From: an uncultured Candidatus Saccharibacteria bacterium
Lineage (GTDB): Bacteria > Patescibacteriota > Dojkabacteria > JAOAGR01
Direction: 5' to 3'
NCBI GenBank assembly: GCA_964503755.1
Contig: CAZDBO010000003.1
Span: 32,686 to 96,685 of the forward strand
DNA length: 64,000 nt
The notes beneath the pieces are model-generated. The model had not been told where the DNA came from. It did not search any database and saw nothing but the letters and a program-made list of their open reading frames with translations. Shown one piece after another: positions 1,771 through 63,259 of this stretch (positions within the stretch are counted from its first letter, which is position 1; each line of letters opens with the position of its first letter). Position numbers and translations under genes: made by a program.

Positions 1771-2850
1771 TTATCTTATTTTTTTAGAATATTGAGCAGC
1801 GTAAATTTCTAAAGTTGTTACAACAACAATCATCACTATGGGTCCATAAATAAAACCAAGAGGACCAAAAAAACTTAAACCAGCCATTATTCCAAGCAGA
1901 GTTAAAAATTCAGGCAATTTTGATTCTTTTGATACAAGCTTTGGACGCAATACATTGTCTATAATTGATATTACAAAGGTTTGTACTAGAATTAGAAAAA
2001 TAGCTCCAACTATATTACCCGAGAAAAACATTATCACAGCAATAGGTATAGTTACTACAAATCCACCCAAAACAGGTATAACACAAGCAACAAAATATAA
2101 AAGAGTTAAAAGAGCAACGTATGGTACATCTAAAATCAATAAAGTAATCATAGCGATAGCTGATTGAACAAAAGCAACTATAAATGTACCATTAACCATA
2201 GATTTTGCCATTGCGGTAGTACGAGTAATATATTTTTCGTCTATTTTTTTTTCAAAAGGACTTACCTCTATAAATCTTTCCCTTAATTTATCTTGATTTG
2301 GAAACAAATACGCAAGCAAAATCACATACAGAATTAGATTTGCAATAATAGTTGGTATTTGCTGTGCAACAGGGGTAATAAAACTCAACAGAAGCTGACC
2401 TGAATTTTCATAGGCATTTGTAATAAATTTATCAACATCTTCATCAGAAACTCTATAAGTTACATATGGTATGGATTCAAGCACGGAATTTAGTTTACTT
2501 CGAGTAAAACTTTTGATCTCTTCTATATTCAAATTACCTTCGTTATTTGTAATCAAAAAATCTGAAGCTATACTTCTTATTTGAAAAAAACCAATCATCC
2601 CAACAATAAAAATCGGTAGTATTAAAGATACAAAAATTGTCGTAATTACAAAGAAAGTCGCTATATTACTTCTCTTAAATACCTTTAGAAAAAATCGATA
2701 CACTGGATTATAAACCATTACAGTTAACAATCCTAAAGATAAAACACCAAAATAATCCCTCAAAAATATTACAGACATAATAAGAATAAGTACAGAAAAA
2801 AACAAAAAAACATACCTCTTATTTTGATCAAACTGAATTTCTTTTTTCAT
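1771..2850 (-). CDS. AI-2E family transporter-like membrane protein (UPF0118/PerM-like)
   Basis: About 8 TM helices and 360 aa, consistent with the AI-2E family; start trimmed to MKKEIQF (ATG 2848-2850) because the longer ORF would overlap tRNA-Trp. Confidence 0.5.
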   Translation of the reverse strand: MKKEIQFDQNKRYVFLFFSVLILIMSVIFLRDYFGVLSLGLLTVMVYNPVYRFFLKVFKRSNIATFFVITTIFVSLILPIFIVGMIGFFQIRSIASDFLITNNEGNLNIEEIKSFTRSKLNSVLESIPYVTYRVSDEDVDKFITNAYENSGQLLLSFITPVAQQIPTIIANLILYVILLAYLFPNQDKLRERFIEVSPFEKKIDEKYITRTTAMAKSMVNGTFIVAFVQSAIAMITLLILDVPYVALLTLLYFVACVIPVLGGFVVTIPIAVIMFFSGNIVGAIFLILVQTFVISIIDNVLRPKLVSKESKLPEFLTLLGIMAGLSFFGPLGFIYGPIVMIVVVTTLEIYAAQYSKKIR

Positions 2851-2865
2851 AGTTAAAACAATTTG

Positions 2866-2936
2866 CGAGGGTGGAGAGAATCGAACTCCCATTGGCGGTT
2901 TTGGAGACCGCAGTCCTACCATTGAACGACACCCCC
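2866..2936 (-). tRNA. tRNA-Trp (anticodon CCA)
   Basis: Reverse complement GGGGGTGTCGTTCAATGGTAGGACTGCGGTCTCCAAAACCGCCAATGGGAGTTCGATTCTCTCCACCCTCG; resembles E. coli tRNA-Trp; CCA not encoded. Confidence 0.8.
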
Positions 2937-2993
2937 AATTGTTCATATTTTATCAGAAAATGATATATTTAGCATATTTTAGACAAAATAATT

Positions 2994-6867: not shown

Positions 6868-6939
6868 AATATTGTAACAATTATAGTTTTTATCGTTATA
6901 AGAATATACTCAACTACTGTAATAAAAGAAACATTCCAT

Positions 6940-8772
6940 ATTGAAACAAAACCTGTATTGCTTGGACCGATTACGTTTCTTTTGCTTTCTAAACAATACG
7001 AACGAAATGAGTGGCGCAAACATCTCGCCCCGTTAGTTCCTGTTTATGTAGAATTATTCAAACAACTAAGCGAAGCGGGCGTGTCATTCGTACAAATTGA
7101 TGAACCAATTCTCGTTCAACATATAGATGACGACATAGTCGATGCATTTCGTGATGTATATGAAGTTTTTCATCGCGATGTACCAAATATAAACCTTATT
7201 TTACAAACATATTTTGATAGCGTATCGCATTATCGTGAAATCGTTGCTTTACCTGTCGCAGGCATTGGGCTTGATTTCGTGCATGACGATGGCGAAAACG
7301 TCAAACATATAAACATACATGGATTTCCAAAAGACAAAATATTAGTTGCTGGGATTGTAGACGGTCGCAATGTATGGAAAAGCTCGCTTGCACAAAAAGC
7401 AACGCTCCTTCATCATTTAGCAGGCGTTGCGGAACAACTCATCATTCAACCGTCTTGCAGCTTACTGCACGTCCCTGTCACGACAAAACATGAACATGCC
7501 TTGCCAACGGAACTTGTCCATACGTTATCGTTCCCTGATGAGAAATTAGATGAGATACGTATGCTTACAGAATATATGAAAGGAAACGCAACAATCGACG
7601 ACCTAATCAAATACGATGAACAAACAAACGCTTATTTTACTAAGTTCCGTGAACAACAAAGACAAACAAACGACATCACCACCGTTCCGTTAAGCCGAAC
7701 ACCTTACAACGAAAGAAAAAAAGTACAACAAGCACATTTGCAGCTTCCACTGTTGCCGACAACGACGATTGGCAGCTTCCCGCAAACAAACGACGTGCGC
7801 CAAGCTCGGATGAGGTGGAAAAAAGGCGAATGGAACGATAACCAATACAAGTCGTTTATAAAGAAAGAAATTGCAAAATGGATCAAGATTCAAGAGCAGC
7901 TACAGCTTGATGTACTTGTTCACGGCGAATTTGAACGCACAGATATGGTTGAATTTTTCGGGGAAAAATTACAAGGAATGGCATGCACAACAAACGGTTG
8001 GGTACAATCATACGGATCACGTTGTGTTCGTCCACCCATTATTTTTAGCCATATTGCCTATCAACAACCGATGACCGTAGAAGAAACCGTGTATGCTCAG
8101 TCGCTGACGAATAAACCTGTTAAAGGAATGCTGACAGGTCCTGTAACCATTTTAAACTGGTCGTTCGTTCGCGACGATATTTCACCAAAACATGTGCTGA
8201 TGCAGCTCGCCCTCGCCATTCGTGGGGAAGTATTGCAGTTAGAAAAGGAAGGCATACGCATCATTCAAGTCGATGAGCCAGCGTTACGGGAAGGATTGCC
8301 GCTCAAAAAAGAGAAGCATGCATCATATTGGGAAGATGCCGTTATGGCGTTTCGTCTCGCTACCTCATCGGTGAAAGAGGAAACGCAAATTCATACACAT
8401 ATGTGCTATTCCCAGTTTGAACATATGATGCATATCATTGATGAGCTTGATGCGGATGTCATCTCCATTGAACCGTCGCGAAGCCACGGTGAACTTGTTT
8501 CATCATTTGAAACATATGAGTATCAAAAGGAAATTGGCTTAGGGGTGTATGACATTCATAGTCCGGGCATTCCGACAAAAGAAGAAATACGTGAGCAAAT
8601 CGAACGTGCACTTCGCGTTCTTCGTCCAGAACAATTTTGGGTCAATCCCGATTGTGGATTAAAAACGCGAAAAGAAAAAGAAGCTATCGATGGACTCAAA
8701 GCGATGGTGGAAGCCGCACACGAATATCGCCAGCAACTCTTGGCTTATGGAGGGATGAAAGCATGGAAGTGA
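6940..8772 (+). CDS. metE: 5-methyltetrahydropteroyltriglutamate--homocysteine methyltransferase, 5'-truncated (N-terminal about 150 aa missing), Bacillaceae-like
   Basis: ...IETKPVLLGPITFLLLSK... through the C-terminal catalytic domain (HTHMCYS, SIE, WVNPDCGLKTR); upstream in-frame sequence is unrelated to MetE and hits a stop at 6898; GC about 45-50%. Confidence 0.85.
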   Translation: METKPVLLGPITFLLLSKQYERNEWRKHLAPLVPVYVELFKQLSEAGVSFVQIDEPILVQHIDDDIVDAFRDVYEVFHRDVPNINLILQTYFDSVSHYREIVALPVAGIGLDFVHDDGENVKHINIHGFPKDKILVAGIVDGRNVWKSSLAQKATLLHHLAGVAEQLIIQPSCSLLHVPVTTKHEHALPTELVHTLSFPDEKLDEIRMLTEYMKGNATIDDLIKYDEQTNAYFTKFREQQRQTNDITTVPLSRTPYNERKKVQQAHLQLPLLPTTTIGSFPQTNDVRQARMRWKKGEWNDNQYKSFIKKEIAKWIKIQEQLQLDVLVHGEFERTDMVEFFGEKLQGMACTTNGWVQSYGSRCVRPPIIFSHIAYQQPMTVEETVYAQSLTNKPVKGMLTGPVTILNWSFVRDDISPKHVLMQLALAIRGEVLQLEKEGIRIIQVDEPALREGLPLKKEKHASYWEDAVMAFRLATSSVKEETQIHTHMCYSQFEHMMHIIDELDADVISIEPSRSHGELVSSFETYEYQKEIGLGVYDIHSPGIPTKEEIREQIERALRVLRPEQFWVNPDCGLKTRKEKEAIDGLKAMVEAAHEYRQQLLAYGGMKAWK

Positions 8773-9212
8773 GCGTCGAGCAGTCGAAAACGATTCAAAC
8801 ACGGCTCGTATTGCCTTCTGATACGAACCATCTCGGGACGATTTTTGGCGGTACGGTTTTAGCGTATATTGATGAAATTGCGGCAATATCCGCCATGCGC
8901 CATGCGCGAAAAGCAGTCGTCACCGTTTCGATCGACAAAGTTGATTTCATTTCATCCGCGAAAGTAGGCGATATTTTAAAACTCGAAGCATTCGTCTACT
9001 CAACCGGACGCACATCCATGAAAGTATTCGTCAAAGTCGAAACAGAAGATTTATTTACAGGCGAACATCACTTAACAACCACATGCTTTTTAACAATGGT
9101 CGCCATCGATCAAAACAAAAAACCGACCCCTGTTCCGAAAGTCATCATTCGTGAACAGGAGAAACAAATGGTACAACTGTATCAACAAAACAAACGAAAC
9201 AATAAGGCATAA
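8763..9212 (+). CDS. Acyl-CoA thioesterase (hotdog fold, YkhA/4HBT-like)
   Basis: MEVSVEQSKTIQTRLVLPSDTNHLGTIFGGTVLAYIDEIAAISAMRHA is the typical hotdog thioesterase core; ATG overlaps the metE stop. Confidence 0.75.
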   Translation: MEVSVEQSKTIQTRLVLPSDTNHLGTIFGGTVLAYIDEIAAISAMRHARKAVVTVSIDKVDFISSAKVGDILKLEAFVYSTGRTSMKVFVKVETEDLFTGEHHLTTTCFLTMVAIDQNKKPTPVPKVIIREQEKQMVQLYQQNKRNNKA

Positions 9213-9230
9213 AATATTTACATGAAAAAA

Positions 9231-9277
9231 CACACGTCCGATTACATACAGGTAATCTATGACGTGTGTGTTTTATT
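9231..9277. terminator. Bidirectional rho-independent terminator between the thioesterase and convergent glmS
   Basis: CACACGTCC-GATTAC..GTAATC-..GACGTGTG nested hairpin flanked by AAAAAA (5') and TTTTATT (3'). Confidence 0.7.
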
Positions 9278-9292
9278 ACTCCATTCTACGCT

Positions 9293-11095
9293 TTACTCCA
9301 CCGTTACCGACTTCGCTAAGTTGCGCGGTTTGTCGACGTCGCAGCCACGGTGTAATGCTGCATAGTAAGCAATTAATTGCAATGGCACGACAGACGCAAG
9401 CGGTGTGAGCATCGGATGAACGGCTGGGATGACGAAACGATCGTCTTCCATGTCTAATCCTTTCATCGAAATGATGCACGGATTTGCGCCGCGAGCGACA
9501 ACTTCTTTTACGTTCCCGCGAATGCTTAAGTTGACATGTTCTTGTGTCGCTAGGGCAATCACTGGTGTGCCGTTTTCAATTAAGGCGATTGTGCCGTGCT
9601 TCAATTCTCCACCCGCAAAGCCTTCTGCTTGAATATAAGAAATTTCTTTTAGCTTTAATGCGCCTTCTAATACAACATAATAGTCAACGGCGCGACCGAT
9701 GAAGAAGCAGTTGCGTGTTGTTGCTAAATACTCGCGCGCAATTTGCTCCATTTCATGTTTTGCGTCGCAAAGTGCTTCCATCGCATTTGCAACAATGCCA
9801 AGCTCTTTCGTCACATCAACATCTAGCGCCATTCCTTTCGCTTTAGCAGCTACCGCAGCTAACATGGCAAGCACCGCAATTTGTGCTGTATATGCTTTCG
9901 TTGATGCAACCGCGATTTCCGGTCCTGCATGAAGAAGAAGCGTATAGTCTACCTCGCGCGATAATGTCGAACCTGGTACGTTCGTAATCGTTAACGATTT
10001 ATAGCCAAGCTCTTTTGTGCGCACAAGCACCGCGCGGCTGTCCGCTGTTTCTCCACTTTGTGAAATATAAATAAATAACGGTTTTTCCGATAAAAGCGGC
10101 ATGTTGTAAGAAAACTCGCTGGCGATATGCACTTCCACAGGGATTTTCGCCCAGTTTTCAATCAATTGTTTACCGACTAAACCAGCGTGATAGCTCGTGC
10201 CGCAAGCAACGATATATAAACGATCCGCTTCATTCACTGCTTGCACGATTTCTTCGTCAATCGCCAATTCGCCTTGTTCGTTGCGATATTTTTCAATTAA
10301 ACGGCGAATGACGAGCGGTTGTTCGTCAATTTCTTTTAACATGTAGTAAGGATATGTTCCTTTTTCAATGTCGCTTGCATCCAATTCCGCTACATATGGT
10401 GCACGCTCTACTACTTCACCATTTAACTTTTTAATTGTCACACTTTCTTTTGTGACAATGACAATTTCTTTATCCATGAGCTCGACATATTGGTTTGTCA
10501 CTTGTAACATCGCTAATGCGTCGCTGGCGACTACATTAAATCCTTCGCCTAATCCAGCTAAAAGCGGGCTTTTGTTTTTCGCCGCATAAATGACACCATC
10601 ATTTTCTGCATCAATTAAAGCAATCGCATATGAACCTTTCAATAACGAAAGGGCCTTACGAAACGCTTCTTCTACCGATAATCCGTCGTTTACAAACGTT
10701 TCAATTAACTGCACAATGACTTCTGTATCCGTATCACTTTTAAACGACACGTGAGCTAAATAATCACGTTTTAACAACTCGTAGTTTTCAATTACCCCAT
10801 TGTGCACAAGCGTAAAGCGGCCTGATGCACTTTGGTGTGGATGGGCGTTGACGCGGTTCGGTACGCCATGTGTTGCCCAACGTGTATGACCGATGCCAAG
10901 CGGTGCGTCTACATCTTCTGCGACAATCGCACGCAAATGAGCAATTCGTCCTTTTTCTTTAAACACATGTACTCCTGTTTCGTTTAGTAAAGCAATTCCC
11001 GCAGAGTCATAGCCACGGTATTCTAACTTTTCTAATCCGTACAATAAAATTTCTTTTGATGGTTGTTCACCAATATAACCAACGATTCCGCACAT
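9293..11095 (-). CDS. glmS: Glutamine--fructose-6-phosphate aminotransferase (isomerising)
   Basis: 600 aa, N-terminal MCGIVGY class-II amidotransferase, two SIS domains, C-terminal ...[12 protein letters not shown]; Bacillaceae-like composition. Confidence 0.95.
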
Positions 11096-11104
11096 AACAA
11101 GTCC

Positions 11105-11320
11105 TCCCTAATCATAGGGGCAAGAAGGGGATCTTGGCCCTTAAATAATTGATGAAATGGCGATGAACGTTCTTTCCTTTCTGCAAAGAGTCGCCTCTTT
11201 GTTTTAAGAAAGAACTTGCGGCTGTCATCGCATCAGCCGGGAGGCATCCGCCGAACACTCGATAAACCTCCTCCTCGTCAACTAAGCTTTTTTCCGTCCA
11301 AAGCTTAGTCCAGGCGCTTT
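11105..11320 (-). ncRNA. glmS ribozyme (GlcN6P-responsive self-cleaving riboswitch) in the glmS 5' UTR
   Basis: - strand reads AGCGCCTGGACTAAGC...GTTGACGAGGAGGAGGTTTATCGAGTGTTCGGCGGATGCCTCCCGGCTGATGCGATGACAGCCGCAAG..., matching the conserved core of the Bacillus glmS ribozyme (AGCGCC...GUUGACGAGGAGGAGGUUUAUCGA...CGGCGGAUGCCUCCCGGCUG...ACAGCCG). Confidence 0.85.
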
Positions 11321-11488
11321 TATACAGTTATTTTCCGCTATCCTCCTTTCATGTAAGATGTCAAACAACAATAGTTTACAACAACAAAGAGGCAAACGTA
11401 AATGTGTATCGCTTACCCCTGTATAAACAAAATATGCATAAATGGAATAAATGGTTCCATTTATGCATATCGTTTACCGAGCATATCA

Positions 11489-12477
11489 TTATGCGCCAAA
11501 TCGTTCGCGAATAACAGACGCAATGCGCTCGACGTATTGATCGCAAAGTTCATTTGTTGGCGCTTCTGCCATCACGCGAACGAGCGGCTCCGTACCAGAC
11601 GTACGAACGAGAATGCGACCGTTTCCAGCCATCTCTTCTTCTACTTCGCGAATGACACGCTGCATCTCTTCATTCGCAATCGCCTCATGTTTGTCTGTTA
11701 CTTTCACATTCACTAATTTTTGTGGATATTTTTTCATTTCCCCCGCTAGCTCAGAAAGCGGCTTTTTCGTGATTTTCATAATTTTGACAAGCTGTAACGC
11801 CGTCAGTAGCCCGTCGCCTGTCGTATTGTAATCGAGGAAAATAATATGCCCCGATTGTTCTCCACCTAAATTGTAGCCGTTCTTTTTCATTTCTTCGACG
11901 ACGTAACGGTCGCCAACTGCTGTTTGTACGCTTTTGATTCCTTGCGCTTCAAGCGCTTTATAAAAACCAATGTTGCTCATCACCGTCGAAACGACCGTTT
12001 GATGTTTCAAGCGACCTTGTTCGTGTAAATATTTTGCGCAAATGCACATAATTTGATCGCCATCAACGATTTGACCGTTTTCATCAACTGCAATTAATCG
12101 GTCGCCATCGCCATCGAACGCTAAACCTACATCTGCTCCTTTTTCCTTCACAAACGCAGCCAACACCTCTGGATGTGTCGAACCGACACCTTCGTTAATG
12201 TTTAATCCGTTTGGAGATGCGCCCATCGTAGACACATCGGCATCTAAATCAGCAAATAAATGTGTCGCTAATGACGACGTCGCACCGTGCGCACAATCAA
12301 GTGCAACGTGAATGCCTGAAAAATCTTTGTCCACTGTTTGCTTTAAATATTGTAAATATTTTTGTCCGCCTTCAAAGTAATCGTTTACTTGCCCTAAATC
12401 TTTCCCAATCGGACGTGGTAACGTATCTTGTTCACTATCGAGAAGCGCTTCAATTTGAATTTTGTTCTTGTGGATAT
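11489..12477 (-). CDS. glmM: Phosphoglucosamine mutase, 5'-truncated (C-terminal about 320 aa present)
   Basis: ...[63 protein letters not shown]...[10 protein letters not shown]... aligns with the central and C-terminal GlmM; N-terminal region with the active-site Ser loop is absent; the frame closes at TAA 12475-12477 at the composition boundary. Confidence 0.85.
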
Positions 12478-12963
12478 TGACTTCTTAAAAAATCCATATA
12501 ATTTTTTATATAAGACACATTATATTTTCTCTTCTCCGTTTCCCAATCTCGATCAATTGCCGAAGTATTATTTCGTGATAGATTATTATTTCCAACAAAG
12601 CTAAAACAACCAAAACTACACCAGTGAATACTACGGCTGTAGCCAGCGTTATAACTACAACAAATCTTCGCTTCGATTTTTATTTGTTATTAAATCCCTA
12701 CCCAAATAAAATATTTGTAAATTTGAATTATTTATTCTTGGCGTTACCTTTGCCTTTATATTTTCCAAAAAAAAACACTAAACCATTTAAATAATTGATT
12801 TACAGGAAAACCTCTCCTATTATCTCTTTTATCTGATTTATGATGGGCTTGCTTGTAACCAGATACAATACATTACTTTATTAAAATACCGTTACATTGT
12901 CAACAGAATCAAATCAAAATTTGTTTTTTGTCAAGTCTCATAACTGTTTATAATTTATTTGTA

Positions 12964-12993
12964 TTGACAAATAACGCATCAGTGAGTTACAAT
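12964..12993 (+). promoter_or_regulatory. Sigma70-like promoter (TTGACA-18-TACAAT); TSS predicted at the ATG of the DUF11 giant protein (leaderless)
   Basis: -35 TTGACA 12964-12969, -10 TACAAT 12988-12993, ATG at 13000 (7 nt downstream). Confidence 0.45.
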
Positions 12994-12999
12994 TTATAC

Positions 13000-15900
13000 A
13001 TGGAAAGGCCTACCAAATTATTAACAACAACAAGAAAAAATAATTATCAAGTTCTGATTTCTCTGATTGGACTAATAATTTTTGGTTTATTCTTTATAGT
13101 TTACCTCGTATCGGTGATCAGCAACAATGACAATCAAGCCAATATAAACTCTAAAGCTTATGCTTTTTCTGCAGAATGGATATACGACGGTGGAAATGGT
13201 CGCGCAAATCGCAACTGTAGATATCAAACAGGTGGTGGTAAATGTGCATTATCAGAATTTAGAGGATGCAATCCCGGTCCAGACACAATTTGTGTTTGTA
13301 ATAAAGATATAATCGTAAACAACGAACAAAGCTTAACCTATGGTAATTTTTCACTCATGCCTGTATCACAATATATTGAATGTGGCATTGATACGAGCAT
13401 CTGTAATAATCCAAATGTACCAGGTGAAACACTTCCTGATGGAAGCCGTATGGTCATAGGAGTAGCTTCTGTTTGCCAAAATCCTTATGCTATTAAATGT
13501 CCACCAAGACAGACACCTAGTCCAAGACGCGCAAGTGTAAACTTAGAAGTTGTATGTGTTGATGGAAATGACCGTACAGGTAATTTTACTATCACAGCTT
13601 CCGCTGTCAGAAGTTCTGATGGGCGAGGACTGGCAGTCCAAACTTTCAATAACGTCAGACCAAATTCTAGCGTACAAAGATATACAATAAATTTTGACTA
13701 TTTTGCAGATACGGATTTACCTGTCCGCCTTAATTTGGATAATTCTCCAACATCAGATAACGGTGTATATGTATCTAGAAATACATGTGCTGGATTAGAC
13801 TTACGAGATGGTGAAACTTGTAGACTCGAATATAGCGGCTGTCGTATACCCACAACACCACCACCTTCATCAACATCTATAAACGTTGGTGCAAGATGTG
13901 TGACAGAAGATGGCAGAAATGAAATCTTCAAAATATCAGGAATAAGATATCAGGCTTCCGTGAATGCACAAACACAAAGTGGAACTACTGGCAACAATCT
14001 TAATACCCATACATTCAATGGAGTAGGAAATGTTACTGTAACATTAGCTTCAAATCTTGATGAAATAAAAAGATTGCCACAACTTCAAAGATTTACACAA
14101 CTAAGACAATTGAGTCCAAACAGCATTACGGTTTCCAATGGAGGGGAAGCTATATTTAATTTTACAAATTGCTATATACCAATAACAGCACAATGTACTT
14201 CATTACGAATCGAATATACCGACACAAACAATCAACAAAAAACAATAAACGTTACATCCACAAATTCAGTTAATGTGGCTGATGGTTTACCAAAACCCGG
14301 TACACAATTGAGACTAATTGCAACAGGTGGAGATGCAAACACATTATTTAGAACTTTCTGGATGAAACCAATTAATGCTGATTCATCACAAGGATGTAAT
14401 TTTTATCTGATCCACAACGGTACAGTGAATACAACAATTAACTCTTCTGGTAACACAACAACCGCGACATTTACTCTACCAAACAATTATTTGACAGAAT
14501 TATCACGTGGTGACGCAGGACAAGATAAACTTGGACAATGTAATAATAAATTAGATTTTAGACAGGGTATCATGTTTGGTGTAAATTATCATGCTGAATG
14601 GATTGAAGGTATGAGATTTTGTAGAAATGTGTCTGGTCGTACAGAAGGTGGAGATTTAATTGAGGTCTACTGCGTAAATAGAGATAACAATGGAAATTGT
14701 ACTAGAGTAGACTGGAGACCAATCAATCAACGATGTGACAACATATGTATTGCTAACGCTAGACCAGCACAAACAGAAACGCCAAGATGTACAGGTTTAG
14801 AAATAACAAATTTAAGAAATAACAATACATGCAATGGCTCAAATCCTGCTGCTTGTAATTTGAATAGAGGTGATAGACTAAGAGTAACCATAAGGTATTC
14901 GGGTAATCCAAGAGAATACATTTCTGAAGAAACAGCCATATTTTATGGTACACGTGGTCCATTATCTGCATCACGAACATTAAATAGTCCAACTTTTGAA
15001 GTAAATGTAAATAACGATAATGATTTAAGAACATTCAGAATACGAGGAGACGTAAATCCTGGATCAAACAGTCAAAACAATCAATGTACTGTAGAATTCA
15101 ACTTCGCTCAAATTACAAATCAATCGATAAATGTTGAGGCTGTATGTAGAGATAATAATCAAAATATCAGACTTGGCGGCATAAACTATAGAATCACCGC
15201 ACAAGACAATTCTACACAAACTGGTACTACAGATAGCAACTCCGCAAGAACTCATAATTTCCTATCGAATCAAATGCCAGTAAGAGTTGAAATAACCGAT
15301 GAGATCGAAAGAATAAGACAAATTACAAGTTATCCAAATTTAGAGTTTGTAGATCCACCTGGCAGAACTATTAATAACGTGAATAATGGTCAAACTGCAA
15401 CATTCGTATTTAGAAATTGTGTAAGACAGACACTGAATCCGCAAATCACTATAGAAAAAAGACTTATTGAAGGAAATTATCAAAATGTTGGAAATAATGT
15501 TGTATTTGACATTGTAGTCAGAAATACAGGAAATGTGGATATCCGATCATTCAATTTATCAGATGAATTTGATAATAGATATCTTAAATTTATTGATGCA
15601 ACATATCGAAATGTAAATCTGGCACCAACAACTAGAATTGGTCCAAACAACAATTTAATAACTCTGAGATGGGATGATATGCCTCCAAAATCAGGAAATA
15701 TAACTGGTGAAGATGGAATCCTTACTATTAATGAAACATTTGTTTTGAGAGTAAGATTTAGAACACTAAATTCGACAGAAAATCTACCACAAAATGCCAG
15801 AGAAAATGATAACTGTGGATTAATAAACACTATAAGATTTGTAAATGATAGAAACGAAACAGAAATAAGAACTGTTGATCTGAGAAGTTGTGATGAGTTC

Positions 15901-16476
15901 TTCACACGTACACCTAGACCGCTCACAGTACAAATAAGTAAAAATGCTATAACAACCGAAGTAAATATTACTCAAGAAGCAAGATTCAGAATTACGATAA
16001 CAAATAACGACCCTGAAAGAAGAACATACACAGATATAGACTTTGTCGATACTTATGATGTTAGATTCTTAAAACCAATAAGAGCTCGTATTACAGCACC
16101 AAATGGTAGAGCGGCAGAGATCACAAATGTTCCTCATGTAAGTCCGTGGAGAATAGAAAACATACAAGAACTACAAAGTATAACTGGTGCCGGTCCTTTA
16201 GGAAATTTGGAATACAATCAATCATATGTAATAGAGCTTGTATACCAAGCATTAGCAGGTACAAATAGTACATGCGACACGGTCTATGCAGATGTTAGAT
16301 CAAGTGACAATAACGGAGCACGCAGTAATAATGCAGAAGCCTGTGTCAAAATAGTAGTACCACCATCCAAAGACACAGGTGCTGATGGATTTATACAATT
16401 GGTCCTACCAGGATTATTATCAACTGCTGCATATGTTGTGATGAGATTTGTTAGAAGAGAGGAGTACCTAGCTTAA
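13000..16476 (+). CDS. Giant surface protein: N-terminal signal-anchor TM, Cys-rich region, DUF11 (conserved repeat domain) repeats, C-terminal TM anchor with basic tail
   Basis: N-terminal TM YQVLISLIGLIIFGLFFIVYLVSVI; many Cys in residues about 90-560; DUF11-like repeats (NVVFDIVVRNTGNVDIRSFNLSDEFDNRYLKFIDATY; ARFRITITNNDPERRTYTDIDFVDTYDVRFLKP); C-terminus ...FIQLVLPGLLSTAAYVVMRFVRREEYLA. Confidence 0.7.
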   Translation: MERPTKLLTTTRKNNYQVLISLIGLIIFGLFFIVYLVSVISNNDNQANINSKAYAFSAEWIYDGGNGRANRNCRYQTGGGKCALSEFRGCNPGPDTICVCNKDIIVNNEQSLTYGNFSLMPVSQYIECGIDTSICNNPNVPGETLPDGSRMVIGVASVCQNPYAIKCPPRQTPSPRRASVNLEVVCVDGNDRTGNFTITASAVRSSDGRGLAVQTFNNVRPNSSVQRYTINFDYFADTDLPVRLNLDNSPTSDNGVYVSRNTCAGLDLRDGETCRLEYSGCRIPTTPPPSSTSINVGARCVTEDGRNEIFKISGIRYQASVNAQTQSGTTGNNLNTHTFNGVGNVTVTLASNLDEIKRLPQLQRFTQLRQLSPNSITVSNGGEAIFNFTNCYIPITAQCTSLRIEYTDTNNQQKTINVTSTNSVNVADGLPKPGTQLRLIATGGDANTLFRTFWMKPINADSSQGCNFYLIHNGTVNTTINSSGNTTTATFTLPNNYLTELSRGDAGQDKLGQCNNKLDFRQGIMFGVNYHAEWIEGMRFCRNVSGRTEGGDLIEVYCVNRDNNGNCTRVDWRPINQRCDNICIANARPAQTETPRCTGLEITNLRNNNTCNGSNPAACNLNRGDRLRVTIRYSGNPREYISEETAIFYGTRGPLSASRTLNSPTFEVNVNNDNDLRTFRIRGDVNPGSNSQNNQCTVEFNFAQITNQSINVEAVCRDNNQNIRLGGINYRITAQDNSTQTGTTDSNSARTHNFLSNQMPVRVEITDEIERIRQITSYPNLEFVDPPGRTINNVNNGQTATFVFRNCVRQTLNPQITIEKRLIEGNYQNVGNNVVFDIVVRNTGNVDIRSFNLSDEFDNRYLKFIDATYRNVNLAPTTRIGPNNNLITLRWDDMPPKSGNITGEDGILTINETFVLRVRFRTLNSTENLPQNARENDNCGLINTIRFVNDRNETEIRTVDLRSCDEFFTRTPRPLTVQISKNAITTEVNITQEARFRITITNNDPERRTYTDIDFVDTYDVRFLKPIRARITAPNGRAAEITNVPHVSPWRIENIQELQSITGAGPLGNLEYNQSYVIELVYQALAGTNSTCDTVYADVRSSDNNGARSNNAEACVKIVVPPSKDTGADGFIQLVLPGLLSTAAYVVMRFVRREEYLA

Positions 16477-16483
16477 GCAAAAA

Positions 16484-16810
16484 TTGCAAATTCATATTAT
16501 CCAGGACATAATAGATGATATGTCCTGGATTTTATTTTTAATTATTACAATTTCCAGTATAGGTATAATAATAATATTAAATTTTGTACCTCCCTACTCT
16601 ACAAATAATGAAATAAACATAATACCTGTATTTTTTCTTAGTTTGTTTTTTGGTTCCTGTACCGCTTCAATATTTTACTTTTTATATAGTGTATTAACAA
16701 AAAAGAACAAAAATATAAGAATCTTTTGGAATAAACAACTCGGATATTTAAGCTTTTTTGTCGGGATAATTTTTGCGATCACCTTATTTATTAAAATTCT
16801 ATATTTCTAA
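16484..16810 (+). CDS. Small hypothetical membrane protein (3 TM)
   Basis: 108-aa hydrophobic ORF 7 nt after the giant gene. Confidence 0.4.
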   Translation: MQIHIIQDIIDDMSWILFLIITISSIGIIIILNFVPPYSTNNEINIIPVFFLSLFFGSCTASIFYFLYSVLTKKNKNIRIFWNKQLGYLSFFVGIIFAITLFIKILYF

Positions 16811-16867
16811 TAATTTGCAAATTTCACAAAAATTGATAACATAAGCTTGGTAGGCCTCTTTTACCAA

Positions 16868-16903
16868 GCCCTTTCTAGAAATAGAAAGGGTTTTTATTTT
16901 TTT
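16868..16903 (+). terminator. Rho-independent terminator (preceded by a second hairpin at 16845-16869)
   Basis: GCCCTTTCT-agaaata-GAAAGGG followed by TTTTTATTTTTTT; upstream hairpin GCTTGGTA..TACCAAGC. Confidence 0.75.
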
Positions 16904-16938
16904 ATCAACTTGCTAATATATCATTAAAAACTGCCCAA

Positions 16939-17415
16939 ATGACAATTAGAAATTCTATTGTTATAAATTTAGATAAAGTTCGTACTGGCATTAAGTCTAA
17001 GTTATCTAATGTAGTTTTTTATATCATTTATTTTGTAATAATCTTCAGTACAATACTCTTTGTTTCTAACGAAATACTGGCTAGTATAATCAATAAATCC
17101 AACATAGAAGAAAAAGTCAGAATTTATGAAGAACAAATTGAAAAATTAAAAAACGAAAATAAGCGTTTACAGATAGTCAAGGAGCAGATTTTTAGTCAAT
17201 TTTATCTTGAAGGCGAAGCACGTAATATGGGAATGATAAAAGATGGGGAAATTTTATATAAACTCAATCAAAACAGTAATATCAATGATTCTAATTCTAC
17301 AATTCAGACGACAGGTAATATAACCATGATTGAAAATGAACAAAGAAAGAATCTTAATAACGAAAAGAATAATAGTAGCTACATTATACAGTGGTTAGAA
17401 TTAATTTTTAATTAA
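16939..17415 (+). CDS. Membrane-anchored coiled-coil protein (FtsB/DivIC-like septum protein?)
   Basis: N-terminal TM followed by heptad coiled coil IEEKVRIYEEQIEKLKNENKRLQIVKEQ. Confidence 0.35.
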   Translation: MTIRNSIVINLDKVRTGIKSKLSNVVFYIIYFVIIFSTILFVSNEILASIINKSNIEEKVRIYEEQIEKLKNENKRLQIVKEQIFSQFYLEGEARNMGMIKDGEILYKLNQNSNINDSNSTIQTTGNITMIENEQRKNLNNEKNNSSYIIQWLELIFN

Positions 17416-20246: not shown

Positions 20247-22010
<1,764 letters not shown>

Positions 22011-27779: not shown

Positions 27780-28478
27780 TTATTTTGTACTAAACGCAAC
27801 CAAACGTCCTCTTACCACTAATCTATGAGTATCAAAACCAGGAGGATAACATGTTTGCAGTGTAGCAAATCTACCATCCTCATCGACATTAAAATAACTA
27901 CGATCGTCCGCTTCTATTATTCGAATAGAGTCGACGAAATAATCATATTGCCTGCCTTGATAAAAAACAGTAAACAGATCTCCTCTTTCCAACTTTGATA
28001 AAAGTGTAAACTGTGCATTGTATCTCCACATATCTTGTACATTTCTTGTGGAATGAGAGAAAAAGAATGCATTACCATAATCACCGGGTACCGCTGAACC
28101 ACGTGCCCAAGCTATTCCCTTTTTCATAGCTTCCTCTGATTCAGCATCGTTATTTATATCATTCACAACAAATACAATATCATTAACACCAATTTTGGGT
28201 ATAACAAGTCCAAAATCACGATTTTTAGGGTTATCGACATTATGTATAGGATATGCTTTTACTTCTGGTATATCTTCAACTCTTCTTTTTGCTAAAAGAT
28301 CTTCAAATTTGGGCGCATTACGCGATCTTTCATCGAAAATCTGCATAAAAGCATATCTAATTTCATGATAAAATATAGGACCATAAAAAAGTATTATCCA
28401 AAAAATGCCTAAAATCATTATAGTATTTAAAGTTATCAGGATAACCGTTTTTTTTCTTTTTTTATTGGCTTTTATCAC
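27780..28478 (-). CDS. Sortase family transpeptidase (N-terminal TM anchor)
   Basis: LERGDLFTVFYQGRQYDYFVDSIRII (beta6/beta7 region), catalytic ATLQTCYP (TLxTC) and downstream conserved Arg (HRLVVRGRL). Confidence 0.75.
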   Translation of the reverse strand: MIKANKKRKKTVILITLNTIMILGIFWIILFYGPIFYHEIRYAFMQIFDERSRNAPKFEDLLAKRRVEDIPEVKAYPIHNVDNPKNRDFGLVIPKIGVNDIVFVVNDINNDAESEEAMKKGIAWARGSAVPGDYGNAFFFSHSTRNVQDMWRYNAQFTLLSKLERGDLFTVFYQGRQYDYFVDSIRIIEADDRSYFNVDEDGRFATLQTCYPPGFDTHRLVVRGRLVAFSTK

Positions 28479-33051: not shown

Positions 33052-33930
33052 GTGTCAGCATTACTCAATATTCAAAATAAAATAAGGGCGACGAAAAATA
33101 CAGCACAGCTCACTAAGGCTTTGGAAATGATATCTGTAACCAAGCAAAAAAAAGCCCGTGAATATATGATTTTCAATTCTGCACTTAGAGATGGTATTAG
33201 GAAGATAATTAATCAATTATACTTTCAAGAGAAATTAAAGAATTTAGGCAATGAAATATTACCAAAATATTTTCGAAAAAAATTAGAATCAAACAGACAT
33301 TTAGTAATTTTGATAATGTCCCAAAGGGGACTTTGTGGGAGCATAAATACACAATTGATCCAAAAGTTAATAAATTACAAAAAACACATACTTAGTGAAA
33401 ACAAAAATATTGAATTCGATATAATCACGGTAAATAAATATGCTCAAAAAATTTCCAAATCGTTAGACTATAATATAATAGCCTACTTTGACAGTATAAA
33501 GGATCTTCCATCAATCGAGGATACACTACCCATATCTGATTTAATAAAAAAACTATACGATGAATACGAGACTATACATATAGCATATACCCAATTTGTT
33601 AAACCTGCACGGACAACACCAACGGTAAGACCTATATTACCAATCAGTGTATCTACAGGATGGAAAGAAAATGATCTATCCTCTACTCCATACGTAATTG
33701 AACCAAATCCTATCACCGTGTTAGAAGAAATAGTAAGATTATATATTGATTTGGAAATCCATTATGCTATTCTAACATCACAAGCTTCAGAGCACACTTC
33801 ACGTATGATTGCTATGAAAAAAGCTTCGGACAATACCAAAAACTTAGTAAAAAATTTAACACTTTTGTATAACAAGGAGCGACAAGCTAAAATTACTAAA
33901 CAAACTATTGAAATCACATCATCTATATGA
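33052..33930 (+). CDS. atpG: F0F1 ATP synthase subunit gamma
   Basis: N-terminal IRATKNTAQLTKALEMISVTK and C-terminal ...ITKQTIEI helices typical of gamma. Confidence 0.85.
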   Translation: MSALLNIQNKIRATKNTAQLTKALEMISVTKQKKAREYMIFNSALRDGIRKIINQLYFQEKLKNLGNEILPKYFRKKLESNRHLVILIMSQRGLCGSINTQLIQKLINYKKHILSENKNIEFDIITVNKYAQKISKSLDYNIIAYFDSIKDLPSIEDTLPISDLIKKLYDEYETIHIAYTQFVKPARTTPTVRPILPISVSTGWKENDLSSTPYVIEPNPITVLEEIVRLYIDLEIHYAILTSQASEHTSRMIAMKKASDNTKNLVKNLTLLYNKERQAKITKQTIEITSSI

Positions 33931-34523
33931 GATTAATAAGCAACTATGATATTTCAATTTTTGTATCTATTTTAGGATTAATTTTTTCAATATTAGGGAT
34001 ATTAGTATCTTTTATTTTATCCTTAGAATATCTAACAATCTTATCAAATCAAACTAAAACTTTAAGCTGTGATATCAATGCACAGATCAGCTGTAGCAGT
34101 GTCATGTTATCAAATCAAGCTAGAGTATTTTTTAACATACCAAATACATATTTCGGATTTATATTTTACTCTATAATGCTTACTTTTTTTATAATAAATA
34201 TATTTGAGAAGATTAACAATAGGATTTTAAATTCAATTTTTTTTCTAATTAGTCTAATAGGAATTATATTTTCTGCATGGTTGATGCAACAAAGTATATT
34301 TGCAATCGGTTCTTTGTGTCCATACTGTATTGTGTCATTTATTTCGGCCTCTTGTATATTTTTTGCAGCTTTATATTTAACTATAAAAAATCTAAAAACA
34401 TCATTACCGCTTGTATTAAAAACACAAGACTTTCTATTCGATAAAAAATGGATATTTTTCTTTATTTTTGCTTGGTTCTTCGTTTGGACATTAATAATTT
34501 TTATTAAATATAGAACACTTTAA
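33927..34523 (+). CDS. Vitamin K epoxide reductase (VKOR) family membrane protein (DsbB analogue)
   Basis: Loop cysteine pair LSCDINAQISCSSV plus TM CxxC (SLCPYCIVSF) in a 5-TM protein. Confidence 0.65.
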   Translation: MRLISNYDISIFVSILGLIFSILGILVSFILSLEYLTILSNQTKTLSCDINAQISCSSVMLSNQARVFFNIPNTYFGFIFYSIMLTFFIINIFEKINNRILNSIFFLISLIGIIFSAWLMQQSIFAIGSLCPYCIVSFISASCIFFAALYLTIKNLKTSLPLVLKTQDFLFDKKWIFFFIFAWFFVWTLIIFIKYRTL

Positions 34524-43976: not shown

Positions 43977-44744
43977 ATGCCTTCTGAAAAATACATAAAA
44001 TTTGAAAACCAAATATTACATTATTTTTTGTTTGAAAATGGCTCTAATAGAATATACTATGTTATGCTTCATGGATGGGGACTCGAATCAAAAGTCTGGA
44101 TAGATATTGGCAAATATATTCATGAACAAAAAAAAACAAACGTAATACTACTAGATCTTCCTGGATTTGGCGAAAGTAGTAAATTAAAAAATAAATATTC
44201 GTTTTTCGAATACTGTGAAATGGTTGAAAAAATAATAAATAAAATATGCGTAAGCAATGTAGAAATTGTATTAATAGGTCACTCATTTGGTGGAAAAATA
44301 AGTTCCGTATTAGCTTACAGAAAACAGTTTAACATAAAAAAAATAATTCTTATCGATTCAGCTGCTTTCACAGATAATTCCTTTAAGACTCAGATTATCA
44401 AATTATTTTCAAAAATAATACCAAAACAGATCAAGGATATTTTTTTTCTCAGAAAAATCACACAAAAACTCAGAACATCTGACTACAATCAAATAAACGA
44501 TGAAAACAAGAAATTCTTATTTCTATCAACTATAGAAACAGATATATCTGAAATTTTGAAAAAGATTCCAACTGAAGTAAATATCATTTGGGGTGAAGAC
44601 GATGAGATTACTCCACTCCCTCAAGCAATCAAACTTCAACAATTAGTAAATACAAAAAATCTTTTTATTATAAGAAACGCAAAACATTTACCATTTTTAG
44701 AGAATAAAAATGAATTTTTACAATATTTAAATCAAATATTATGA
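43977..44744 (+). CDS. Alpha/beta hydrolase fold protein
   Basis: Nucleophile elbow GHSFGG, HGWG oxyanion region. Confidence 0.7.
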   Translation: MPSEKYIKFENQILHYFLFENGSNRIYYVMLHGWGLESKVWIDIGKYIHEQKKTNVILLDLPGFGESSKLKNKYSFFEYCEMVEKIINKICVSNVEIVLIGHSFGGKISSVLAYRKQFNIKKIILIDSAAFTDNSFKTQIIKLFSKIIPKQIKDIFFLRKITQKLRTSDYNQINDENKKFLFLSTIETDISEILKKIPTEVNIIWGEDDEITPLPQAIKLQQLVNTKNLFIIRNAKHLPFLENKNEFLQYLNQIL

Positions 44745-46174
44745 AACTGAAAAATCTAGCAAGAGAAATTTATCTTTTCCAACTTGAATATTATGATATA
44801 AAAAGATATTTGAAAGCATCAAAAAACGTAAAAGAAGTTTTCTTTGAAAAAAAGATAGATTTTACCACAAAATTAATTTTTGTTCTTATAGCATCGACTT
44901 TACCCTTTTTTTTAATCGCTTTAATAAATTATCTAATTTTTGGAATGACTTTAACATTTGTTTTATTAATACTTCTTTATATCTTTATCTATATTTTTTT
45001 ATTTAAATACTTTCTTATAATTGGAAACTTTATCGTCCATCCTGTTGAATTAAGTATAAAAAATCTTATTTATTTGATAGCAAAATTGAAACTTAAAAGA
45101 TACAAAAATCTTATTGTTATAGGTGTTGCAGGAAGTTATGGAAAAACATCTACAAAAAATATAGTCTCATACTTACTTGAACAAAAATACAACGTTCTTA
45201 AAACAGACAAATCTATTAATACCCCACTTGGGATAAGTAAAATAATACTTAAAGAATTAAATGACAAACATGATTTTTTTGTTGTTGAAATAGGAGAATA
45301 TAAAAAAGGTGATGTAAAAGAGATTGTAGAAATTGCAGAACCACACATTGGCATAATAACTGGTATCAATGAAGCCCATAATGAACGTATGGGAGGGATA
45401 AAAAACGCCATCGAAACAATATTTGAGATTACAGAATCAAAAAAAATTCAAGAAATTTATATAAATATAGACGATACTAATATCAAAAACTCATATAAAA
45501 AATATGAATCTAAAAACTATCAATTTATTCCCTACTCTTCATCCAAAACTGATGATTTTTCTATCGAAGAATTAGAATTTGATACAGATGGCAATGGGCA
45601 AAAATGGAAATTACAAGATTTTAAATTAAATCAAACAATAATTGGAAAAACGAAATTAATAGCAGAATATGCTCTAGGTCCGATAATGCTTTGCTATCTT
45701 CTTAACAAAAGATTCGACGTCATTTCAATTAATCAATTTACCAAAATAATTGAACACTACAAAGGTACACCGCATCGCTTATATGTAATAAAAAATAGCA
45801 AAAATGTAATCATTATTGATGATAGCTATAACTCAAATCCCAATGGTGCAAAAGAGGCAATAAAAACACTCGCGAAATTCAAAAATCGTAGAAAAATATA
45901 TATTACTCCAGGAATGGTAGAACTAGGTGATTTATCGTATGAAAAACATTTTTATATAGGTGAATTGCTAGCAAGTTATGGTATAGACGTAATATTACTT
46001 ATAGAAAATTCTAATATAAAAGGTATCATAGACGGAGCTTTATCCAAAGGATTTAGAAAAGAAAACATAATAATTTTTAGAAATAGATCAGAACTACATA
46101 AAAATATCGAAAAATTCACTGAACCTGGTGATGTGTTATTATTTCAGAACGACGTTACAGAAAACTATTTTTAA
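44741..46174 (+). CDS. Mur ligase family protein (MurF-like) with N-terminal TM region of about 110 aa
   Basis: ATP-binding GVAGSYGKTSTK, later Mur ligase central/C-terminal motifs (TPGMVELG, HRLYVI); hydrophobic N-terminus in place of the usual N-domain. Confidence 0.7.
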   Translation: MKLKNLAREIYLFQLEYYDIKRYLKASKNVKEVFFEKKIDFTTKLIFVLIASTLPFFLIALINYLIFGMTLTFVLLILLYIFIYIFLFKYFLIIGNFIVHPVELSIKNLIYLIAKLKLKRYKNLIVIGVAGSYGKTSTKNIVSYLLEQKYNVLKTDKSINTPLGISKIILKELNDKHDFFVVEIGEYKKGDVKEIVEIAEPHIGIITGINEAHNERMGGIKNAIETIFEITESKKIQEIYINIDDTNIKNSYKKYESKNYQFIPYSSSKTDDFSIEELEFDTDGNGQKWKLQDFKLNQTIIGKTKLIAEYALGPIMLCYLLNKRFDVISINQFTKIIEHYKGTPHRLYVIKNSKNVIIIDDSYNSNPNGAKEAIKTLAKFKNRRKIYITPGMVELGDLSYEKHFYIGELLASYGIDVILLIENSNIKGIIDGALSKGFRKENIIIFRNRSELHKNIEKFTEPGDVLLFQNDVTENYF

Positions 46175-46177
46175 TTT

Positions 46178-52333: not shown

Positions 52334-52335
52334 AA

Positions 52336-62614: not shown

Positions 62615-63259
62615 CTATTTTTCAAGAATATTTTTCTCAAAAGACTTTGATCTATTGTATAAGTACCAAGTTACCAAAATAAATACGAAAATTAATGTAG
62701 GTAAAAACATATCATTTATACCCGCATTTGGTGCTGTATTAGAAATATCCACACGAGCTTTAGTACAAATTTCTTCAGGTTCTATCAAACAAACCTCGTT
62801 TTCCGTATTTTGTCCCGGGTTATCTACTCTAACCTTGTAAGTAATGACTATACTTTGATTTGGATTTAGTTGTTGAATAGTATCCCCATCAAATTCCCAT
62901 CTAATAACGCTATCAGAATTAGTGACAGGCTCAAACGCTACCTCTTCACCTGAAGTTTTAATAAGTTTAGGTTCTCCACTATAAACAAATCCCTGAGGTA
63001 ATTTGTCCTCAACGATTTCCGGAGTTAAAGTTTCAGAAGTTGTAATATTTTTGATTGTTACAGAATAAATAACAGTACCTCCTCTAGCAACAGTTTGTGG
63101 TGAAACATTTTTCTCTATAGAAAATCTCGTTCCTGTAGCAAGGTCAGCATATGCGTAATAAGTACTAAACAAAAATAAAAATATCAAGATTAAAACAAAG
63201 AAAAATCGTTTTACAAAATCTATTTTATCAAATAAATCAATACCTAACATCACATTCAT
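62615..63259 (-). CDS. DUF11 (conserved repeat domain) surface protein with signal peptide and C-terminal TM anchor
   Basis: FSIEKNVSPQTVARGGTVIYSVTIKNITTSETLTPEIVEDKLPQGFVY is a classic DUF11 repeat; C-terminus ...FLPTLIFVFILVTWYLYNRSK. Confidence 0.7.
   Translation of the reverse strand: MNVMLGIDLFDKIDFVKRFFFVLILIFLFLFSTYYAYADLATGTRFSIEKNVSPQTVARGGTVIYSVTIKNITTSETLTPEIVEDKLPQGFVYSGEPKLIKTSGEEVAFEPVTNSDSVIRWEFDGDTIQQLNPNQSIVITYKVRVDNPGQNTENEVCLIEPEEICTKARVDISNTAPNAGINDMFLPTLIFVFILVTWYLYNRSKSFEKNILEK

Follow-up and report, generated by a model that had tools for sequence, protein, structure and literature searches.

Candidate Phyla Radiation (CPR) bacteria, or Patescibacteria, are thought to live attached to other microbes. 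We know of few CPR attachment proteins, and of none for Dojkabacteria. Could the largest gene in a 64,000-nucleotide stretch of Dojkabacteria DNA (contig CAZDBO010000003.1, positions 32,686 to 96,685; the whole stretch is called the window here) encode such a protein? The gene lies at 13000..16476 on the plus strand and specifies, from ATG 13000, a Cys-rich modular surface protein of 1158 amino acids (aa) plus a stop codon. A preliminary look at the letters alone, made without database searches (the sequence-only reading), had called it the largest gene of the window, and its open reading frame (ORF) is indeed the longest there. That reading, which saw in the product a candidate adhesin or host-interaction protein, is borne out in its main lines, though some of its numbers were loose. 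The gene is real, and it evolves under purifying selection: the ratio of nonsynonymous to synonymous divergence (dN/dS) is 0.06-0.10 at a dS of 0.8-1.4 (Nei-Gojobori, against two orthologues). Its product is best read as an envelope-anchored, extracellular all-beta modular protein of Candidatus Dojkabacteria, most likely an adhesin or host-contact protein, and in this reading we place slightly better than even confidence. The architecture suggests the adhesin role, and sequence features likewise point to the topology and the anchoring mode. The gene offers a concrete, well-delimited candidate for a Dojkabacteria attachment protein: strongly constrained, probably extracellular, and with a fast-evolving distal module.

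Modules, cysteines and relatives

Comparison within the family by jackhmmer resolves eight modules, followed by a sorting-signal-like tail (aa 1121-1158). Ahead of them stands a predicted transmembrane (TM) helix or signal anchor, aa 17-41 (13048..13122, plus strand; Kyte-Doolittle mean up to 2.9), with a basic n-region before it (R3, K6, R12 and K13) and a conserved [AV]-x-A motif 12-15 residues past it. This helix is of TM length, about 25 residues, and the sole helix of an AlphaFold2 (AF2) model spans residues 16-43. An N-terminal signal-anchor had been proposed at the outset, to be abandoned if no signal peptide or TM segment were predicted; hydropathy indicates TM segments at both ends of the protein. 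The first module, N (aa 57-175; 13168..13524, plus strand), carries nine Cys and the signature CRYxTGGxxCAxSEFxGCNPGxxxxCxC...CG...C...CxNPYxxCP; eight of the nine are invariant in 11 sequences that share 26-52% identity. Next come A1 (aa 176-283, four Cys) and A2 (aa 284-395, two Cys), all-beta modules of about 105 aa each with one Cys near either end (together 13525..14184, plus strand). The central module (aa 396-596; 14185..14787, plus strand) has the signature LPKPGT...FWM[KR]P...FT[LM]PN...L[DN]F[SR]xG[IV]xFG[VA]xY...CxN...CxNxC and combines six invariant Cys with two more, C558 and C567, exactly the two that a clade-specific insertion brings in. Module B (aa 597-705; 14788..15114, plus strand) holds four invariant Cys in the pattern CxxLxITNxxNNxxCxxxNPxxCxVxxGDxLxV...C. 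It is followed by A3 (aa 706-808, two Cys; 15115..15423, plus strand), which is a copy of A2: aa 290-380 match aa 706-793 as an internal repeat (E 2e-9), and in jackhmmer the A2-A3 link is strong and the A1 link weak. The membrane-proximal end (15424..16359, plus strand) is formed by a pair of domains of CLIPPER type (DUF7507/DUF11), CL1 (aa 809-972) and CL2 (aa 973-1120), with one conserved Cys pair in each.

The CLIPPER assignment calls for some care. DUF11/CLIPPER and DUF7507/CLIPPER_2 domains are CnaA-like immunoglobulin (Ig) domains, often with a Lys-Asp-Asn isopeptide bond and often with a disulfide, and in fibrillar adhesins they typically build the stalk (Costa et al. 2025, PMC12617251). 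The only match in the whole protein to pass a curated cutoff is that of aa 813-859 to CLIPPER_2/DUF7507 (PF24346; 29.1 bits against a gathering cutoff of 27), and it covers only model positions 1-47 of 105. CL1 and CL2 match each other in jackhmmer, and the two DUF11 models are not reached (PF01345 13.5 bits against 24.6; TIGR01451 16.1 against 24), whereas the homologous domains of four relatives, P0006, P0009, P0013 and P0016, do pass PF01345, so that CLIPPER membership of CL1 and CL2 rests on transitive homology. Of the DUF11 repeats that had been announced, the DUF11-type domains are there, as two divergent CLIPPER-type domains and not as a repeat array. At the Lys and Asp positions of the CnaA-type isopeptide triad stand K820/D855 and K981/D1017, conserved in P0006, P0009, P0010 and P0015; the Asn partner is ambiguous (N938 in CL1, N1089 or D1093 in CL2). 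Isopeptide bonds may form in both domains.

Cysteine accounts for 2.85% of the protein, against 0.75% in the 44 other ORFs of the window, an enrichment of about 3.8-fold. The initial figure of about 45 Cys, concentrated in the first 560 or so residues, was too high by about a third: there are 33, of which 20 lie within residues 1-560, 26 within 1-620 and 28 within 1-720. The modules N, A1, A2, central, B, A3, CL1 and CL2 hold 9, 4, 2, 8, 4, 2, 2 and 2 of them, an even number in seven of eight. All 33 are invariant in the three orthologues, most persist in homologues at 25-40% identity, and homologues of only 24-52% identity keep eight in the N module, six in the central module and four in B; the idea of disulfide-stabilized modules, which was to fall if the Cys were not conserved in homologues, comes through this comparison. 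The VKOR-family oxidoreductase noticed earlier at 33927 is likewise borne out (33927..34523, plus strand; PF07884, 106.7 bits) and is a candidate generator of disulfides for exported proteins; no DsbA-like partner for it was found in the window. The protein thus has conserved, even-numbered Cys in its extracytoplasmic part, and an oxidoreductase is encoded in the same DNA. Conservation, even counts and the paired insertion, together with VKOR, are what intramodule disulfides predict, and we infer that such bonds form. As a separate observation on the oxidoreductase gene, it overlaps the stop codon of atpG by 4 nt (33927 against 33930, in the region 33052-34523, plus strand) and appears to be cotranscribed, possibly with translational coupling, with ATP synthase genes. 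The ATP synthase beta gene lies apart, at 20593-21972 on the minus strand, and the annotation of L001 and L002, two of the related loci, leads one to expect epsilon just downstream of it.

How common is a protein of this kind? Close orthologues are found on three Logan contigs (85-87% identity), and another in a GenBank metagenome-assembled genome (MAG) of a Candidatus Dojkabacteria bacterium (JAOAGR01); synteny holds for orthologues in three assemblies besides this one, the MAG among them. A full HMMER scan of aa 45-810 against 1.84 billion cluster representatives returned 16 proteins at E <= 0.001, and those relatives that were looked up are singleton clusters, either unnamed or called 'hypothetical protein' or 'uncharacterized repeat protein (TIGR01451 family)'. 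Their modules come in different orders: N, B, B, CL1, CL2 in P0006 and N, A1, A2, CL1, CL2 in P0010, three B copies in P0012, two central copies in P0014, and a central module with other modules on both sides in P0017 and P0018. A1 recurs in P0009, P0013 and P0010, A2 in P0010, and B, single or in tandem, in P0005-P0008, P0011-P0013 and P0016 (the contig location of P0005 was not found); B-like modules are also present in a divergent neighbour gene of L002. Judged from these sequences, the family is a mosaic one, rare and confined to CPR bacteria, with distal modules not described so far. One paralogue among the 16 stands out by its location. P0003 (L004, 10001-13819) is a secreted protein of 1272 aa. 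Its gene is flanked by a response-regulator gene and pilM and belongs to a type IV pilus cluster, which also encodes a PilB-like ATPase and an N_methyl pilin. The protein shares the central module with all six conserved Cys, at 38% identity by tblastn and up to 46% by phmmer, comes from the same sample as L002, and has a counterpart in the Dojkabacteria MAG (L006, 10001-10591).

The remaining ectodomain, about 760 residues from N to A3, matches nothing in Pfam, NCBIfam or PDB sequences. Weak candidates were rejected: REV1 for the N-module profile (six PDB chains, E 0.23-0.54, no credible hit), 3eby for the whole protein (E 0.2-0.8), and, as noise at E of about 0.2-0.7, CcmE and Clavanin in Pfam and gp105 in NCBIfam; a profile of the central module against PDB sequences also gave no credible hit. 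Fold searches with the central module return a generic Ig-like core only; the module is a sandwich of Ig-like type with elaborations, to which no known structure is specifically related. These unannotated, Cys-conserved modules could seed new domain families.

What might such an array do? The N module is the fastest-evolving part of the ectodomain (dN/dS 0.13-0.16) and CL1/CL2 are far more constrained (0.02-0.05), so that the distal module evolves about 3-5 times faster than the CLIPPER stalk. Architecture, module shuffling, this gradient of constraint and the presence of the central module in the pilus-cluster protein P0003 are the reasons why surface binding fits. In the mechanism that we propose, the basic N-terminus and the 25-residue hydrophobic helix would lead to Sec-dependent export with the N-terminus inside, leaving about 1085 residues outside the membrane. 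The ectodomain would form eight beta modules locked by intramodule disulfides, probably with the assistance of VKOR. The two membrane-proximal CLIPPER-type domains would act as a rigid stalk, with possible isopeptide bonds, and the six modules specific to the lineage (N, A1, A2, central, B and A3) would be held off the cell, carrying any binding function. Several points weigh against this picture. No domain of known binding function was found in Pfam, NCBIfam or PDB sequence searches or in the central-module fold searches; the number of Cys in the N module is odd (nine); and the full-length AF2 model, built from a 5-sequence alignment, is unusable (predicted local distance difference test 33.6), so that disulfide pairing, CLIPPER fold and isopeptide geometry stand as predictions.

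The main rival makes the protein a structural component of the envelope, an S-layer-like or wall-associated scaffold that is abundant and covers or stiffens the cell surface. A near-consensus promoter and a monocistronic unit with a strong terminator would fit high expression, the gene sits in a conserved housekeeping neighbourhood, and an adhesive domain is not recognised. However, great rarity and module shuffling are what one would sooner expect of variable surface proteins that bind ligands than of a core lattice; the distal module is also the faster to evolve, and a pilus-cluster protein has the central module too. S-layer proteins are also usually poor in Cys. We consider a structural role unlikely, if still the strongest of the alternatives, and retain the adhesin or host-contact reading.

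Start codon, promoter and terminator

Where do the protein and its mRNA begin? The ORF track starts the gene at TTG 12928 (12928..16476, plus strand, 1182 aa), and TTG 12964 and GTG 12982 are further in-frame alternatives 5' of ATG 13000. The orthologues P0001 (87% identity) and P0002 (85%) both begin at the ATG equivalent to 13000; their N-termini read MYKSTLL... and MYTSTLL..., against MERPTKLL... in the query, and the calls were made independently on related contigs. In the orthologous loci protein-level similarity vanishes 5' of this ATG, while promoter-like elements persist. These comparisons support translation from ATG 13000. It had been remarked beforehand that a start at TTG 12928 would contain the promoter, and the TTGACA/TACAAT pair at 12964-12993 does lie inside that ORF.

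The promoter is of sigma-70 type (12964..12993, plus strand; 11/12 match): TTGACA at 12964-12969, an 18-nt spacer and TACAAT at 12988-12993, with six nucleotides, TTATAC, between it and ATG 13000. It is the best match within 12300-17000, and the TTGACA-18-TACAAT description given by the sequence-only reading is exact; its placement of the transcription start site (TSS) on the ATG remains a prediction. The arrangement recurs as TTTACA-18-TATAAT-7 nt-ATG in L001 and as TTTACA-17-TAAAAT-7 nt-ATG in L002/L005. Since the -10 hexamer ends 6-7 nt upstream, standard sigma-70 geometry would put the TSS at the A of ATG 13000 or 1 nt before it. Transcription from this promoter would then begin on the ATG or no more than 1 nt away from it and yield a leaderless mRNA, translated without a Shine-Dalgarno (SD) interaction.

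Is this geometry peculiar to the gene? None of the 45 native ORFs of the window has an SD motif (GGAG, GAGG or AGGA, 4-20 nt from the start). In 18 of them a -10-like hexamer, defined by at least 5/6 matches including A2 and T6, has its end 4-9 nt ahead of the start codon, against 6.5 +/- 2.3 in shuffles, of which 0/2000 reach 18; at other offsets such hexamers precede 3-11 ORFs. The check for further leaderless genes that the sequence-only reading had called for is therefore positive. In related loci (orthologous in part to the window, with gene calls made independently), 18 such hexamers are observed where 5.6 are expected, and an SD-like tetramer precedes 3 of 44 genes. SOD, LeuRS, the sortase, gyrA (in L004) and ATP synthase beta are among the genes with the hexamer at 4-9 nt. 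Here, too, a -10 element within the range of about 5-8 nt from the start goes with the lack of an SD motif, and leaderless expression of the gene is plausible. As other genes share the geometry, it loses its specialness here and looks like a general habit of the genome. These Dojkabacteria appear to be largely SD-independent and rich in leaderless genes; a literature search found nothing published for Dojkabacteria on the use of SD motifs or on leaderless genes. Scarce SD motifs and many leaderless mRNAs would affect gene calling and start-site prediction in such genomes.

Could the mRNA have a leader after all, with a TSS further upstream, an SD-independent start at ATG 13000 or at an upstream TTG or GTG, and a TTGACA/TACAAT pair that is coincidental? 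The score of the promoter counts in favour of this: matches of at least 11/12 are not rare, numbering 4 in the window where composition-preserving shuffles give 6.2 +/- 2.7. There are further promoter-like sites upstream, and besides the in-frame TTG and GTG codons already mentioned, L002/L005 have an in-frame ATG 13 codons upstream. All four of the window's matches do stand upstream of correctly oriented genes (tRNA-Met, tRNA-Glu, ORF 1022 and this gene), and the weight of the promoter, as read from sequence, is carried by position and conservation, not by its match score. The distance from -35/-10 to the ATG is kept in three loci despite divergence of the intervening sequence and of the upstream codons, independent gene calls picked the equivalent ATG, and the geometry is enriched genome-wide. 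Moreover, any alternative start puts promoter sequence inside the N-terminus, before a typical n-region and TM helix. A leadered mRNA is on these grounds improbable, and the leaderless reading is kept.

At the other end, an intrinsic terminator (16499..16540, plus strand) begins 23 nt 3' of the stop codon, with a 12-bp stem and an 8-nt loop followed by UUUUAUUUUU. The hairpin folds at -19.9 kcal/mol (z -5.2; 0/200 shuffles fold as well), and L001 and L002 carry the two arms unchanged but differ in the loop. Because of this conserved hairpin the gene looks monocistronic, as the proposed mechanism would have it. A side observation concerns the DNA just beyond. A small, conserved membrane-protein ORF of about 96 aa lies within 16499-16810 (plus strand, ATG 16520; called in L002 at 8704-8994). 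Its ATG sits in the 3' arm of the terminator hairpin and would be sequestered in read-through transcripts; the 5' arm and loop hold CATAAT, 7 nt before this ATG. The 180 nt downstream are 92% identical among loci, where synonymous sites elsewhere are near saturation.

The C-terminal tail and its sortase

How is the protein held at the surface? Its tail (16360..16473, plus strand) consists of PPSKDTGADG, a hydrophobic segment at aa 1130-1148 (Kyte-Doolittle mean 1.68) and the basic end RFVRREEYLA, so that a sortase substrate's hydrophobic segment and positively charged tail are both present. In the closest relatives a motif stands 12 residues after the last conserved Cys: PPKTG in P0006, PPNTG in P0009 and P0010, and APNTG in P0019. 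More distant members of the family end in LPRTG, LPPTG, LPPTA or LPDTN, then a hydrophobic stretch and a basic end. The candidate processing enzyme is a sortase, encoded at 27780..28478 on the minus strand (PF04203, 70.4 bits); Mur ligase and MurJ, for peptidoglycan synthesis, are encoded at 44741-47845, so that one organism encodes both the transferase and the wall. The tail, to judge by these motifs, descends from a sortase signal.

Whether it still acts as one is another matter. At the same offset the query and both orthologues read SKDTG, in which Thr-Gly is kept and Pro replaced by Lys, and this lacks the substrate pentapeptide's Pro at position 2 ahead of Thr-Gly at 4-5. The LPXTG-anchor model TIGR01167 gives no match to the tail at E <= 1. 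The sortase is 11 kb from the gene and fits no curated class, scoring best against class C (60 bits, cutoff 160). Sortase processing of the SKDTG tail is uncertain, and the hydrophobic segment would be a membrane anchor if the tail is not processed. Of the C-terminal anchor that had been claimed, the hydrophobic segment with its basic tail stands and its processing is left in doubt. The tail would thus fix the protein to the cell in one of two ways, as a simple membrane anchor or through sortase transfer to peptidoglycan.

Other sortase substrates give limited help. In about 150 kb of Dojkabacteria DNA there is one clear candidate, with APNAG, too few to define a motif for the lineage. It is a 214-aa protein (62615..63259, minus strand; TIGR04226 32.8 bits, PF01345 33.1 bits), a candidate pilin or small wall-anchored protein with a signal sequence, a DUF11/RrgB-type isopeptide domain, the APNAG motif, a hydrophobic segment and a basic tail. 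A 200-aa ORF at 1022-1624 with VPNTG was rejected as a sortase substrate; it looks like a polytopic membrane protein. Genes for sortase-assembled pili are normally clustered. That the large protein is a tip or accessory subunit of such a pilus, joined by a class-C-like sortase to a shaft of the 214-aa protein, is very improbable: the sortase does score best against class C, the pilus-polymerising class, the 214-aa protein does combine an RrgB-type isopeptide domain with an APNAG signal, and the tail does resemble a sorting signal, but this role is less likely because the three candidate genes are dispersed (11-46 kb apart), and the sortase reaches only 60 of 160 bits, the tail is without the motif Pro and no pilin motif was identified.

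The adhesin or host-contact reading allows a bolder version, which we put forward as speculation and regard as unlikely in its entirety. The family would be a CPR-restricted set of mosaic, disulfide-locked host-contact proteins whose parts belong to four or more domain families not yet described (N, A, central and B), with the central module as a receptor-binding unit that one organism displays both on an envelope stalk and on a type IV pilus-associated protein. The change from xPxTG to SKDTG in the Dojkabacteria clade would then mean a membrane tether in place of a wall link, or an altered sortase specificity. Current views are not overturned by any of this, and the interest is to specialists.

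Neighbourhood and comparison with known systems

The gene and the order of genes after it are native. Downstream, relatives keep the small TM ORF, DivIC, chorismate mutase-prephenate dehydratase and ATP synthase beta and epsilon in the same order. Upstream, a 5.5-kb segment of odd composition (about 6905-12450; 43-45% GC against about 30% elsewhere) contains a 5'-truncated metE, a 4HBT thioesterase gene, glmS and a 5'-truncated glmM, and the foreign glmS carries a GGAGG SD motif, unlike every native gene. Relatives have at this position a single divergent surface-protein gene of 1242-1243 aa (L002 1316-5047, L005 6107-9835), whose 3' and 5' remnants flank the segment in the window; the segment is either an assembly chimera or a recent foreign insertion in the neighbouring gene. 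The gene does sit right after a composition boundary, as first described, and the boundary is unrelated to it. A genomic island carrying the gene was rejected, as gene and downstream synteny are native and the odd DNA interrupts the neighbour gene.

Two further observations concern other parts of the window. At 49751-53733 (plus strand) a secreted 860-aa subtilase combines Ig-like domains with a dockerin-type module at its C-terminus. The next protein, of 465 aa, bears an fn3-like domain and ends in a TM anchor. In CPR genomes dockerin modules are unusual. The AI-2E transporter ORF at 1771-2946 (minus strand) has a longest-ORF start that runs through tRNA-Trp(CCA) at 2865-2936 (minus strand), so its true start must lie downstream. 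The presence of this tRNA, together with normal use of stop codons, argues against UGA recoding in the lineage.

How does the gene compare with systems that are already known? Leaderless mRNAs of Actinobacteria and Deinococcus, the former reportedly described for the transcriptome of Mycobacterium tuberculosis by Cortes et al. in 2013, resemble it in having a -10 element 6-7 nt before the ATG and no SD motif. Unlike those cases, this one comes from an AT-rich CPR bacterium with a predicted TSS, and SD motifs also seem to be missing at its genes without the -10 geometry. With the LPXTG wall-anchored proteins of Gram-positive bacteria it shares the tripartite tail (TG motif, about 19 hydrophobic residues, basic end), a genome with sortase and peptidoglycan-synthesis genes, and relatives that bear LPRTG, LPPTG, PPNTG or APNTG. 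It departs from them in reading SKDTG, and in an N-terminal segment of TM length (about 25 residues) that is not a typical cleavable signal peptide.

The closest resemblance is to fibrillar adhesins, and the protein can be described, as far as its sequence tells, as fibrillar-adhesin-like, a surface protein whose stalk is of CLIPPER type and whose anchor derives from a sortase signal. Like them (PMC12617251), it is a long exported all-beta protein with CLIPPER-type domains next to the C-terminal sorting signal and other modules distal. Each CLIPPER-type domain has a Cys pair, in agreement with the roughly 30-35% of CLIPPER domains for which disulfides are reported (PMC12617251). Unlike in fibrillar adhesins, there are only two CLIPPER-type domains here, both divergent; some 760 further residues of the ectodomain fall into no known family, and the recognised adhesive domain of a fibrillar adhesin was not found. 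The type IV pilus-associated protein P0003 (L004) offers a second comparison, as it shares the central module of about 200 residues with six Cys. It differs in having a cleavable-looking signal peptide, in lacking CLIPPER domains and a C-terminal anchor, and in lying within a pilus operon, whereas the window gene stands alone among housekeeping genes.

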